Source: Candidatus Latescibacterota bacterium
Lineage (GTDB): Bacteria > Latescibacterota > UBA2968
NCBI GenBank assembly: GCA_965198115.1
Contig: OZ240241.1
Coordinates: 7,680,001-7,744,000, forward strand
Direction of reading: 5' to 3'
Length of the DNA stretch: 64,000 nucleotides
The translations under genes and the position numbers were made by a program. The notes beneath the pieces are model-generated. The model was not told the DNA's origin. It saw nothing but the letters and a program-made list of their open reading frames with translations, and made no database searches. This document shows positions 41,359 to 44,859 of this stretch, piece after piece. Numbering within the stretch: position 1 is the first letter of the stretch; the number at the start of each line of letters is the position of its first letter.

Positions 41359-41943
41359 AGGCCCCTAATTCGGAACGATTTCATCAAATCCGCCCCAGAG
41401 CACCGGCAGAAAAAGATCGTCCAAATTTAATCGAGTTTCTCATCCCCAAGGAAGGGAGAGCTACTCGGAGGGGTCAATCAAGAGGGTTTCAGTGATCAGA
41501 ACATCAAAGCCACCGTCCCCCGCTTCTCGGGCAGCAGCAACAAGGTCGGCGCGTTGAACCGTACCGAACTCCGGGCCGATAAAGATCGCGGCGCGCTTTT
41601 CCATCTCGCTTTCCATGTAGCGGCCTTCGGCGCAAACCAGATCACCGGGCCACGGCTTGAGTGTGGTAAAGGCGATTCGTCCCTCCTTGTGAGATTGTTG
41701 AACGCCGGCGACCTCAAGGTTCTTGAGGATCATCTGTGGGAATGACTGATTGGCTTCGTAGTCTCCGGCACTTTTTTGGAGATCGCCGATCAACCCATCG
41801 TCCTCGTCGACTGCAAGCATGCGGTGAGGGCTCAGGTTTTCCACGGTGAACGGGCCAGCAACGCGAACAATCTTCTCGACATTATATACTTGACGGACCC
41901 ATAGGATTGTAGTACTTTTCCCAGTGAACAAGCCATTACACCC

Positions 41944-42093
41944 TCACTTCTGCTTCTTCTCGCCCTTCTCTGGTGGCTCGTCCTTTCGATGGGCTGGCCC
42001 CGCATCCAGCGCCTTTTTCAGTGCCTCTTTCACCGTCAGCGGGTGTAGGGTGATGGGCTTATCGTAACCGTTCTTTCTATCACGCTTCTCCAT
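41944..42093 (-). CDS. 49-aa peptide MEKRDRKNGYDKPITLHPLTVKEALKKALDAGPAHRKDEPPEKGEKKQK (below ORF-track cutoff)
   Basis: ATG 42093 to TGA 41944; motif shared with 55380..55529. Confidence 0.6.
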   Translation of the reverse strand: MEKRDRKNGYDKPITLHPLTVKEALKKALDAGPAHRKDEPPEKGEKKQK

Positions 42094-42118
42094 AATAACC
42101 ATGCCCGTATGAATATCC

Positions 42119-42147
42119 TTGACACTATGCCCCTAAGCGGCTATTCT
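42119..42147 (+). promoter_or_regulatory. Sigma70 promoter for IS1595 cargo
   Basis: TTGACA (42119-24), 17-bp spacer, TATTCT (42142-47). Confidence 0.75.
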
Positions 42148-42198
42148 CTTAATGATGCGGTAAGACCAATTTTCCCACAAATCGAAGGAGATGGACAC

Positions 42199-42615
42199 GT
42201 GACAAGTAACCTTGAATTGTATATGCAAATCCGTAAAAACCTTCTTTATGAATTGGCTCAGGTTGATCGCAAGATCTCTGAACTTTCGGGCAAGAGTATC
42301 CCGGCACTTACTCGAACACGCCGCGTCAAGAAAAGCAGACGCAAAAACCCCAACTCCGTAAGCGCCCAAGTCAAGAAAGCGCTTTCCGACATAATAGAGC
42401 CCGAGGACGGTAGACATAAACCCCCGAAGGTTATCCAGTCGGAGTTGAAGGAGATTGGAATCATCGTTGACATGAGGTACCTCCGAAGTTTGCTGTCCAT
42501 CGAGAAACGGCATCATGATCGGCTCGCGAATGATCACGAAGGATGGTTCAAGCCAGCTGAAAACGATACGGCCCCGGAGGGCGCGGAAACGCCGACCGAG
42601 GCCGTAAATTCCTGA
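42199..42615 (+). CDS. Passenger protein: coiled coil, basic linker, probable winged helix
   Basis: GTG 42199 with SD GAAGGAG 8 nt upstream; VKKALSDII..PKVIQSELKEIG..YLRSLLS..EGWF. Confidence 0.65.
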   Translation: MTSNLELYMQIRKNLLYELAQVDRKISELSGKSIPALTRTRRVKKSRRKNPNSVSAQVKKALSDIIEPEDGRHKPPKVIQSELKEIGIIVDMRYLRSLLSIEKRHHDRLANDHEGWFKPAENDTAPEGAETPTEAVNS

Positions 42616-42620
42616 TGGCT

Positions 42621-42691
42621 GGGGGTGGCAGGTTGCGGGCGGAAGGCTGTGGACCCGGCGCCCGGGGATTCAAGTTCCTCCACCTCCACCA
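42621..42691 (+). ncRNA. tRNA-like RNA (71 nt) with alanine identity elements and no canonical D-arm
   Basis: Acceptor GGGGGTG/CACCTCC with G3-U70, A73, encoded CCA; T-arm GGGGA-TTCAAGT-TCCTC. Confidence 0.65.
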
Positions 42692-42811
42692 AAATACCCC
42701 CCACATGCGTAGCGTAAGCAAAGGAGGCTAACTAAAAGATACCGACAAAAGTCCCACAAATCCAGTGTTTATCAGCGGTTATGGATAACTACATGAAAAA
42801 TCAATAGTTAC

Positions 42812-42983
42812 AGGGGGTGAGGTCCGCCCGATCCCGCGATTCCACCAACACTTTTCCCGGGCAACTGGCCCAAAGGGGAGGTGAGATAGGCAATGACGAC
42901 TACAACTCGTTGCCGTGGACCACCAGTGATGTAATCGTTTCTTCGGACCCTAATCCGTGCGGGATCGGCGGTGCCTCACCCCT
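42812..42983. ncRNA. Long fold-back structured region abutting transposase stop
   Basis: 42812-42837 complementary to 42959-42983; internal hairpins; SD plus 13-codon ORF 42893..42934 on + strand. Confidence 0.5.
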
Positions 42984-43943
42984 CTACGCCGTAAGTGGCT
43001 TGTACGACAAGCGCTTTCCGCCCGACGCCTTGATCGCGTTCAGGGTTCGTGTAACATCCGTGACCGCACGATTATTCCACCTGAACGTGGCCTCATCACA
43101 ATAACGCTGAAGGTGCTCTTTGCTGACGTGGTGCCACGATCCATAGACCGCACGTTTCAGCAGCGAGAAGAGGCTTTCGGCGGTGTTGATGTGAATGTTG
43201 CCGCGTGCATATTCGCGGGCGCTATGCTTCACAAAACCGTGGCTCTCAAACTCCCGATCCAGCCCACGATAGGACTGTAGCTCGTCCGTCATGATCGACG
43301 CTGACGGATCTACGTGTTCGCGGATGTTCTCTTTCAGGGTCACTGCCGTCACGTCAGGGACCACGCGCATACGGGCGTTACCGTCTCGCTCGACCAGAGC
43401 GGCAACGGGCGTCTTTTTCGTCTTAGGCTGGCGCTGACCCTTCTCACGCAACTCCGCTCTACGTTCGTGTGACACGCGCTCACGCGGCTTACCGCCCACG
43501 TACGCCTCATCCGCCTCGATGATGCCTTGCAGCTTGATGGTTCCATCCTCGGCCATTGCGTGCCTGATACGGTGACACATAAACCACGCGCTCTTGTAGG
43601 TGATCCCCAACTCTCTGTGAATCTGATGACTGGAAATGCCCTTCTTGGACGAGCACATCCGAGCGAAGGCGTATACCCAATCTTTAAGCGCTATGGGGCT
43701 GTTCTCAAAGATGGTGCCGACGCGGATCGTGAACTTCCGACGGCAGTCGCGGCACTTGCAACGCCCCTCAGCGCCGGCCTTGCCACCCATCTTGTAACCC
43801 TTTACAGACCCGCAATGCGGACAGATCGGACCGTCAGGCCAGCGTATGGATTCGATAAGGTGTCTGGCCTCATCTTCTGATAGGCGTGCGAGTTGTGCGG
43901 GATTCTCAATATTCATGGCGTCTCTCCGTTTGTATTGACACAC
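42984..43943 (-). CDS. IS1595 transposase (Zn ribbon, HTH, DDE)
   Basis: RWPDGPICPHCG, CRDCRRKF, YKSAWFM, EADEAYVGG, MTDE, HINTAES, YCDEATFRWN. Confidence 0.95.
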   Translation of the reverse strand: MCQYKRRDAMNIENPAQLARLSEDEARHLIESIRWPDGPICPHCGSVKGYKMGGKAGAEGRCKCRDCRRKFTIRVGTIFENSPIALKDWVYAFARMCSSKKGISSHQIHRELGITYKSAWFMCHRIRHAMAEDGTIKLQGIIEADEAYVGGKPRERVSHERRAELREKGQRQPKTKKTPVAALVERDGNARMRVVPDVTAVTLKENIREHVDPSASIMTDELQSYRGLDREFESHGFVKHSAREYARGNIHINTAESLFSLLKRAVYGSWHHVSKEHLQRYCDEATFRWNNRAVTDVTRTLNAIKASGGKRLSYKPLTA

Positions 43944-44574
43944 CCTGAATATACCACATCAATGTGGGTCCGTCAAGTATATAATGTCGAATCTTCTTAT
44001 GCTCGTAAGGTTTGTCATAGAGGTATTTAAACTCAGCCTTCACGGCGATCGAGGCGTCGATCTCCTTTTGTCGGGCGATCCGGGCCTCCCACCAATCGGC
44101 ATGTAGCTTCTTTGCTCCGTCCGACCAATTGCTGTCGGTATCCCTGGGTATTTCCCACTCCATCTGAAGTTTGGAGCCAATTGAAGTTCGGATCAGGCCC
44201 CGCGCCGCGTAAAAAGCTGGCGAAACTTATGGTGTCCTCGTCTGCGGGAGTACCAGAGGATATAATCGAGCCTTGCTGGGAGCCGATCGGTTGAGCCAAG
44301 CCCAGTCGCACCCTTGGTAAACGCAATCAGTGATACAAAGTTGTCTTCGGCGTCTGAGATCCGTCGACTCTGTCCGAGACCGTTTATAGGACGTGAACAT
44401 TCATCAATTTGTTTTACTCATCGCCATTTTTGAGTGAAGGCAGACGCCTCAGAAAACCCAGTGAGCACGACGCAGCCCTCGATGGTGAGTTCGACCGTCT
44501 TCAGGCTCTCGCTCAGCCTGGACTTCCTTCACGAGGGACGAAATTTTCGGCGAAGGCAACAGCGGCGGAAGGGG

Positions 44575-44731
44575 GAAGGCGGAATTCGAACCTTCCTGAA
44601 AGAATGGCTCACGCAAGAGTGCGTAAGCCATAGAAGGTGGGCGATACCGGCCTTGCCGAAGCTTCAGCGAAGGCGGGGATTCGAACCAAAAGAAATGGCC
44701 TGCGAATGAACGCAAGCCATTGATCATAATA
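44575..44731 (-). repeat. Tandem degenerate tRNA 3'-end plus terminator units
   Basis: Hairpin/U-tract terminators at 44688-44721 and 44598-44631; tRNA-end copy 44636-44687 with 28-nt insert; T-loop remnant near 44583. Confidence 0.6.
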
Positions 44732-44777
44732 TGGTGGACGATACCGGATTCGAACCAGCGACTTCCTGCTTGTAAGG
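44732..44777 (-). tRNA. 3' half of tRNA-Val(TAC), att-site-like fragment (not a full gene)
   Basis: ccttacaagcaggaagtcgctggttcgaatccggtatcgtccacca; 5' half replaced by AT-rich DNA. Confidence 0.8.
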
Positions 44778-44859
44778 TAGGAATTTATAATAGTATTTAC
44801 AATGAGTTATATAAACGTAACGTCGTATGTAACCCCATTCGGAGCCAGATCTAACCGGA

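Follow-up and report, generated by a model that had tools for sequence, protein, structure and literature searches.

A 64,000-nucleotide stretch of a Candidatus Latescibacterota genome, hereafter the window (assembly GCA_965198115.1, contig OZ240241.1, positions 7,680,001 to 7,744,000 of the forward strand, numbered here from its first letter), harbors an IS1595-family insertion sequence that carries a compact alanine-identity tRNA-like RNA of 71 nt in addition to its transposase. A first-pass annotation of the window had proposed this RNA as genuine cargo of the element, and the proposal is supported both by covarying relatives and by further element-borne loci. The feature is real: the element is confirmed, the RNA belongs to a covarying four-helix family, G3·U70 and A73 are retained, U is enriched at position -1, and members are carried by IS1595 and IS1 elements. 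Mistranslation, which was absent from the functions initially listed, best fits the anatomy of the RNA, and we put the chances that it is an alanylated mistranslating or suppressor tRNA, decoding with alanine, at about even. The element and the RNA comprise the following features.

41869-41876: target-site duplication, left copy, AATCTTCT, 8 bp
41877-41901: terminal inverted repeat, 25 bp
42621-42691, plus strand: compact alanine-identity tRNA-like RNA, 71 nt
42621-42627 with 42681-42687, plus strand: acceptor stem, 7 bp, with G3·U70
42628-42636, plus strand: mini D hairpin GC[AGGUU]GC, joined to the acceptor stem without a connector
42637-42663, plus strand: long anticodon arm with a 5-bp stem, a 3x3 internal loop, a GG/CC stem and the 7-nt loop CUGUGGA
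42649-42651, plus strand: GUG triplet in the CUGUGGA loop
42664-42680, plus strand: T arm, 5 bp, loop UUCAAGU
42688, plus strand: discriminator A73, followed by an encoded CCA at 42689-42691
42984-43916, minus strand: IS1595-family DDE transposase, 310 aa (Pfam and NCBIfam)
43965-43989: terminal inverted repeat, 25 bp
43990-43997: target-site duplication, right copy, 8 bp

The element spans positions 41877-43989 (2,113 bp) and is present as a single copy in the 8.4-Mb genome. The precise boundaries first read from the sequence are borne out: perfect 25-bp terminal inverted repeats (TIRs) bound the element, and the 8-bp duplication flanks both ends. The transposase contains zinc-ribbon and DDE_Tnp_IS1595 domains (PF12760 and PF12762, the latter with E 7e-43) and scores 211 bits against NF033547, for which the cut-off is 75.

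The 7-bp acceptor, G3·U70 wobble, A73, encoded CCA and T arm originally described are all present in the RNA. Two points of the description had to be corrected. A proper D-arm had been reported missing, whereas a small conserved D hairpin begins at position 8, and the CUGUGGA loop had been drawn directly on a GGGCG/CGCCC stem, whereas the internal loop and the GG/CC stem intervene. The anticodon loop has G37, and in the T arm A53-U61 replaces the G-C pair usual in the family. tRNA-His is recognized by G-1 together with C73, a pattern not shared by this RNA, which has U at -1 and A73. ARAGORN called neither a tRNA nor a tmRNA here. With 71 nt, no tag frame and 33.8 bits (E 2.5e-11) against the cut-off of 47 for Rfam tmRNA (RF00023), the RNA is not a full-length tmRNA. 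As the host genome encodes its own full-length tmRNA and three tRNA-Ala genes elsewhere, the RNA is an extra. Its own folding energy is at chance level (z -0.40), so the structural case for it rests on homologues.

A covarying family of compact RNAs

For the compact RNA family 120 distinct members were collected, 97 by pattern scans and 23 by covariance-model searches. A loose pattern matched at least 120 stretches in viral contigs, at least 95 of them distinct; the matches listed were mostly tag-less tmRNA-like sequences, with a shorter minority resembling the RNA of the window. Tighter patterns matched 9 viral and 103 metagenomic stretches, and removal of duplicates left 97 distinct RNAs of 69-75 nt, that of the window included. 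Covariance-model searches of genome samples gave matches in 8/151, 2/5, 9/151, 1/151 and 11/151 genomes, and in 7/151, 1/151, 1/5 and 1/151 genomes of further samples. Twenty-three new RNAs remained once 15 canonical tRNAs, one cloverleaf oddity (L213), two matches to members already known, the copy in the window and a locus of an unpublished genome had been removed.

Members of the family have a 7-bp acceptor stem, a D hairpin of 2-4 bp that starts at position 8 and has GG in its loop, and a long arm in which an outer stem leads through an internal loop to a GG/YC stem capped by a 7-nt loop; the T arm follows without a variable loop. The family departs from the cloverleaf of canonical tRNA (RF00005), which has a U8/N9 connector, a D stem of 3-4 bp, an anticodon stem of 5 bp and a variable loop, while the 7-bp acceptor, 5-bp T stem, UUCRA loop, D-loop GG and U33 are retained. 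The closest relative of the RNA in the window (L301) lies beside an IS1595 transposase and has UUG instead of GUG. No Rfam family scored above its cut-off for the RNA of the window or for members in 20 further loci; tmRNA was the best match, and its 13 matches in those 20 loci all fell below the cut-off. Given these scores and the ARAGORN miss, compact RNAs of this family are likely to have been left unannotated.

In the pattern-found set, 90.9% of the cells were paired compared with 75.1% after shuffling, a value reached by none of 500 shuffles, and sliding the partners lowered pairing to 49-61%. The columns of the acceptor sequence, of UUCRA, of two T-stem bases and of part of the loop are circular, having been prescribed by the scan patterns; the D-stem, anticodon-arm and two outer T-stem pairs were left free and showed many two-sided changes, in counts that are inflated by kinship among the sequences. 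The model-found RNAs were paired in 452 of 491 cells (92%, against 66% and at most 72% in shuffles), in an alignment that leans toward the model to which it was fitted. Absence of covarying stems among relatives had been set as the result that would overturn the initial proposal, and the stems covary in both sets. That all four helices covary indicates that the RNA fold is under selection.

The alanine identity elements were retained among the model-found members, with G3·U70 in 22/23 and A73 in 23/23. Acceptor pairs 4, 5, 6 and 7 vary in these RNAs, mostly with compensation; pair 4 is other than G-C in three members, pair 5 in ten and pair 7 in eleven. Because all acceptor pairs were near-invariant in the training set, the retention of G3·U70 in particular is informative, with the reservation that the model still favors that pair. 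G51-C63 is present in 22/23 of these members and U at position 8 in 1/23. U occupies position -1 in 65/96 pattern-found and 13/17 tested model-found members, against a background of about 25%, and was never imposed by the search. RNase P prefers U at -1, and the processing by this enzyme originally suggested is in keeping with the enrichment as a matter of RNA maturation, not as the purpose of the RNA. The length of the D stem was anticorrelated with that of the 3' arm (rho -0.57, n = 89/97; rho -0.75, n = 11/17). Length compensation between arms is an established principle in tRNAs, and the relation is what would be expected if the distance from acceptor to anticodon were under selection.

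An anticodon could be parsed in 94 of the 97 pattern-found members, giving 25 triplets. All but six are non-Ala (88/94), and 19 read stop codons (CUA in 16, UUA in 3); UCC (22) and UAU (9) are frequent. The 7-nt loop Y-U-NNN-N-A, which was partly imposed in the pattern set, also parses in 15/17 model-found members. Comparison of 22 disjoint close pairs showed differences at 8/66 triplet positions and at 21/85 positions of the internal loop, while only 3 of 24 more distant pairs have their anticodon in common. The anticodon is conserved inside lineages and exchanged from one lineage to another.

Carriage by insertion sequences

An IS1595 or IS1-type transposase was present in the fetched flank of 42/113 loci. 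Among loci of at least 2.5 kb, 38/78 carry one (20 IS1595, 18 IS1), with all four relative orientations represented, and 40/78 carry neither type. In 15 of the 42 linked loci the RNA and the transposase lie together within one TIR pair, and nine of these have an exact target duplication. A transposase lies within 1.5 kb of 13/23 model-found RNAs, compared with 0/15 canonical tRNA matches (1/16 when L213 is counted). The latter locus, at G000:C1:5955046-5955121 in the genome of the window, is an IS1-type element beside a cloverleaf tRNA with G3·U70, A73 and the anticodon UAU (Ile).

Approached from the transposase side, a compact RNA was found at 1/80 of the closest transposase loci (L011), several of which carry other odd tRNAs at the same position, and tRNA-like cargo lies within the TIRs of 4/43 bounded elements. 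Close IS1595 relatives at L007, L010, L012, L017, L038, L053 and L069 have long-variable-arm tRNAs of 85-101 nt that are convergent with the transposase, most of which we take by eye to be Leu-like with Pro-type anticodons. Another IS1595 element of the genome of the window (L081, G000:C1:2425266-2425341) encloses an odd tRNA with UUG, C37 and G73 inside its TIRs. The genome also has a tRNA array of 20 genes at G000:C1:2870558-2872531.

A long open reading frame (ORF) stops 1-9 nt before G1 in 18/113 loci. A gene for a P63C-domain protein ends at this distance at the IS1-type loci L228, L248, L249, L255, L258, L279, L292 and L302 and at the IS1595 locus L286, and most of the RNAs preceded in this way fall into a group whose anticodon is amber (CUA). 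The 233 flanking ORFs with a length of 200 aa or more were scanned with Pfam, which revealed phage integrases, other transposases, phage, toxin-antitoxin or restriction genes at about 16 further loci. No recurring synthetase gene was found in the flanks, nor was a strand excess of promoters upstream of the RNAs (20 vs 14 of 87). At several loci only housekeeping genes flank the RNA. Those without a transposase in the flank (L240, L242, L253, L261, L270, L287, L289 and L291) have mostly UAU, UGU or UGC anticodons and are possibly domesticated copies. Tandem compact RNAs or small arrays with other irregular tRNAs also occur (L274 and L363/L368; L276, L319, L331, L332 and L338), and recall the polycistrons of Mukai et al. 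(PMC5389517).

Proposed decoding with alanine and its alternatives

On the basis of anatomy and context, the RNA would likely be co-transcribed with the 138-aa gene that precedes it in the window, cut out by RNase P, furnished with CCA by repair where this is not encoded, and charged with alanine by the host synthetase. EF-Tu would then deliver it to the ribosome, and alanine would enter proteins at the codons read, which in the window are histidine codons. The long, broken anticodon arm likely compensates for the shortened D stem and the missing connectors, so that an L shape of normal reach would be kept. G3:U70 is an identity element for AlaRS (PMC7609411; PMC11415595), and allo-tRNAs with this pair insert alanine irrespective of their anticodon (PMC7609411). 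The element might gain from read-through or from stall relief at stops and at codons with scarce tRNAs; alternatively, a mild toxic or addiction effect might be kept in check by the upstream regulator. The broader proposition, that IS1 and IS1595 transposons spread a minimal four-helix tRNA that has neither connector nor variable loop, is charged by AlaRS, is accepted by the ribosome and can exchange its anticodon, amber and ochre being among the options, is put forward tentatively, its probability being somewhat short of even. If it is true, insertion sequences would reprogram host decoding as a selfish or protective trait, and Leu-body and other mismatched tRNAs would occupy the same cargo slot.

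Several observations weigh against decoding. Pyrimidine 37 is unlike normal decoding tRNAs, and C or U occupies this position in 61/94 pattern-found members, while 9 of 11 parsed model-found members have a purine. CCA is encoded in 12/97 pattern-found and 8/23 model-found members. The copy in the window is the sole case of GUG among the 94 anticodons, in addition to having the atypical A53-U61 pair. The transposases do not avoid the cognate codon, the use of which was lower than in elements with other anticodons in 7 comparisons and higher in 14, and no internal TAG was present in the six amber-type transposases tested. A raw count of anticodons that match rare codons gave p 0.001, driven by related amber members and with the codon usage of the window genome as proxy; counted by distinct anticodon with base 34 kept, the result was not significant (p 0.35-0.43). 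The absence of both a variable loop and U8 is more extreme than in the translating tRNAs of the papers cited. Finally, some irregular tRNAs of mobile elements are charged yet unused in translation (PMC5389517).

In the strongest alternative, the RNA is matured and charged or chargeable without decoding, and serves as bait or sink for anticodon nucleases, CCA-end toxins, or AlaRS and EF-Tu. Its varied anticodon loops would then match different nuclease specificities. The evidence for structure, identity and processing fits a decoy equally well, and the frequent pyrimidine 37, the mostly unencoded CCA and the lack of cognate-codon avoidance in the transposases speak for it, as do the charged, non-decoding tRNAs reported in PMC5389517 and the position of some loci beside HicB, MNT-HepT or restriction-modification genes. 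However, a nuclease bait has no obvious need for G3·U70 and A73 or for length compensation between the D stem and the anticodon arm, the 19/94 anticodons that read stops mimic no host tRNA, and the flanks of the RNA share no one family of toxins or nucleases. Of the four functions first suggested, a decoy is the only one not weakened here; we regard it as rather unlikely on this balance, while giving it appreciable weight.

A role as tag-less tmRNA, consisting of the tRNA-like domain (TLD) only and inhibiting trans-translation by binding SmpB as the RNA of mycobacteriophage DS6A does, appears improbable. Inhibitory TLD-only forms of tmRNA are known (PMC4131195, PMC11915505), tmRNA is the best Rfam match, though below the cut-off, and the acceptor end resembles that of the host tmRNA. 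Ordinary tRNA-Ala genes, however, reach 29-36 bits on the same Rfam model, which makes the match unspecific. UCGA and GAC motifs play a role in SmpB binding, and both are present in the host tmRNA. GAC precedes the T stem in 2/97 family members compared with 32/95 viral TLD-like sequences among the matches listed, and UCGA is found in the D region of 1/97 compared with 31/95. The family also conserves an anticodon stem-loop, which is absent from the TLD because SmpB fills that space (PMC4131195). The tmRNA-domain mimic among the functions first suggested is accordingly disfavored, given that an anticodon-type loop is conserved in the family and that the D-loop and linker motifs of tmRNA are missing from it. 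Among the viral contigs (L090-L209), most of the at least 95 distinct sequences look like tag-less mini-tmRNAs of about 77-83 nt with tmRNA-like D-loop and linker motifs; judged by sequence, such RNAs are common in phages, and DS6A is the sole phage example named in the papers cited.

We assign a similarly low probability to a cis-acting, mascRNA-like RNase P signal that trims the passenger mRNA or frees an antisense RNA against the transposase. The enrichment of U-1, the 18/113 loci with a stop just before G1 and the convergence of the RNA in the window with its transposase would agree with such a signal. Against it, orientations relative to the transposase are mixed (14 convergent, 12 divergent and 16 co-directional among the 42 linked RNAs), so that the antisense signal proposed at the outset would suit only the first of these groups. 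Some copies stand in tandem or form arrays with other odd tRNAs, and G3·U70 and the anticodon loop would be superfluous, as RNase P needs neither. Marginally the least probable is a role at the DNA level or none, the sequence being either an integrase landing pad (another of the initial suggestions) or what is left, under drift, of a tRNA-Ala or tmRNA captured earlier. Some loci do lie near phage integrases or a recombinase, and 40 of the 78 long loci lack an IS1 or IS1595 transposase in the fetched flank. Against this, the four helices covary, and no att-like duplicated 3' end was found in 113 loci, the only one in which the 3' 14-mer is repeated having a full tandem RNA; the 3' 14-mer of the RNA in the window is unique in its genome.

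The closest known system to the compact family is that of the allo-tRNAs (PMC5389517; PMC7609411). Both are non-canonical and have an anticodon-blind identity (Ser or G3:U70 Ala) together with diverse non-cognate or stop anticodons, and both have transposon genes and toxin-antitoxin systems close by and in some cases form arrays (PMC5389517). Unlike the allo-tRNAs, with their 8/4 or 9/3 acceptor/T configuration (PMC5389517), the compact family is 7/5 throughout at 68-75 nt, has neither connector nor variable loop, and lies inside TIR-bounded IS1595 and IS1 elements. The irregular tRNAs in the supplementary rows of PMC5389517 compared here keep U8-type connectors, those of allo type have long variable arms, and none of the rows starts with either of two 5' motifs searched. 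TLD-only tmRNAs (phage DS6A, organelles and plastids) resemble the family in size (about 65-80 nt), in the GGGGGYG/CRCCUCC acceptor, in G3·U70, A73 and the T arm, and in having a mobile element as carrier (PMC4131195, PMC11915505); they differ from it in lacking the closed D hairpin and the 7-nt anticodon-type loop.

The tRNA-Pyl of Methanomethylophilus alvus and its relatives also has no nucleotide between acceptor and D stem, a small D loop and a lengthened, broken anticodon stem, and that of M. alvus translates without a connector, with a 4-nt D loop and with the broken stem (PMC7609411). Unlike the compact family, which has A73, G3·U70 and no variable arm, it carries G73 and a variable arm of 3 nt and is served by a dedicated synthetase; the tRNA-Pyl of Methanosarcina and Desulfitobacterium lacks G18G19 and TΨC, whereas the family has the D-loop GG and UUCRA (PMC7609411). 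The Streptomyces tRNA-ProX/ProRSx system similarly combines one amino acid identity with several foreign anticodons, and tRNA-ProX mistranslates in E. coli; it differs in its canonical cloverleaf, Pro identity, co-encoded synthetase and restriction to Actinomycetes (PMC11415595). No description of the compact family was found in the open literature, although subscription papers and figure-only supplements may hold one. The family is a new structural variant among the irregular tRNAs of mobile elements and offers a tractable case for their role in mistranslation, rescue or decoy. If its members translate, they have a connector-free fold smaller than those in the reviews cited and form a natural panel of alanine-inserting missense, amber and ochre suppressors of about 70 nt, with which the minimal requirements of the tRNA L shape could be probed, and simple insertion sequences would be able to move translation-altering RNAs between phyla.

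Other features of the element and its surroundings

42119-42147, plus strand: sigma70-like promoter motif TTGACA-17-TATTCT, 10/12 consensus matches, predicted activity
42199-42615, plus strand: passenger gene for 138 aa, starting with GTG and preceded by AGGAG; product with a long N-terminal helix and a three-helix domain
42813-42983: second strong structure, adjoining the transposase stop, folding z -5.75
43948-43976, minus strand: promoter-like motif for the transposase, partly inside the TIR, predicted activity

Of the near-consensus sigma70 promoter reported in the first-pass annotation, the motif itself is present, while a loose scan did no better than shuffles (2 sites vs 1.4, not significant alone); by expectation, the exact-TTGACA form would turn up 0.024 times in a sequence as long as the element. 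The RNA begins 5 nt past the stop of the 138-aa gene, as had been noted. The encoded protein is likely a DNA-binding regulator. A structure model of it reached a pLDDT of 68 (a single-sequence model was poor, at 48). It had no significant Pfam, NCBIfam or fold match; the fold search returned nothing below E 2.8, with Fur-type winged helices ranking top, and the best PDB profile match was StbA (E 0.006). Three remote homologues were found. A word-index search matched only the protein itself, viral loci had no homologue, and weak homologues in 2/167 other genomes of the phylum had neither a compact RNA nor a transposase within 1.5 kb. The layout seen in the window recurs at locus L256, where a gene for a protein homologous to that of 138 aa (E 1e-4) precedes the same type of RNA.

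The structure at 42813-42983, overlooked initially, is a 171-nt multibranch fold that both strands form about equally well (-87 and -85 kcal/mol) and may be an insulator, a terminator or an inserted palindromic element. Searches with nhmmer found no homologue in the 337 loci or in the rest of the genome, and one 18-nt pattern found none in viral contigs. Other convergent elements carry unrelated hairpins at the corresponding place, with z below -6 in 3/11. A permuted two-piece tmRNA using a second GGGGGUG at 42813 was considered and rejected (Rfam E 0.12), the strand being paired within its own hairpin, and a look-alike of a tag ("GNDDYNSL") had no homologue.

Among IS1595-family elements with passengers, the element of the window is typical in its Zn-ribbon and DDE transposase, TIRs of about 25 bp, 8-bp duplication and passenger ORF, and its TIR motif makes it a candidate member of an ISNwi1-like subgroup. 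Article listings of the open literature searched gave no description of tRNA-type passengers in such elements. The element splits a minus-strand reading frame (41461-41876 and 43990-44163) that resumes across the insertion, which is consistent with a recent insertion; the two pieces had no NCBIfam match. Assembled contigs from two sequencing runs span the element without differences, though these are possibly from the source sample and hence not independent support. Several further transposase-like ORFs lie in the neighborhood. On the minus strand at 44541-44830, the 3' half of a tRNA-Val(UAC)-like gene is followed by degenerate T-arm repeats; the stretch looks like an island attachment remnant, and its first 85-100 nt are found again at two other sites in the genome.

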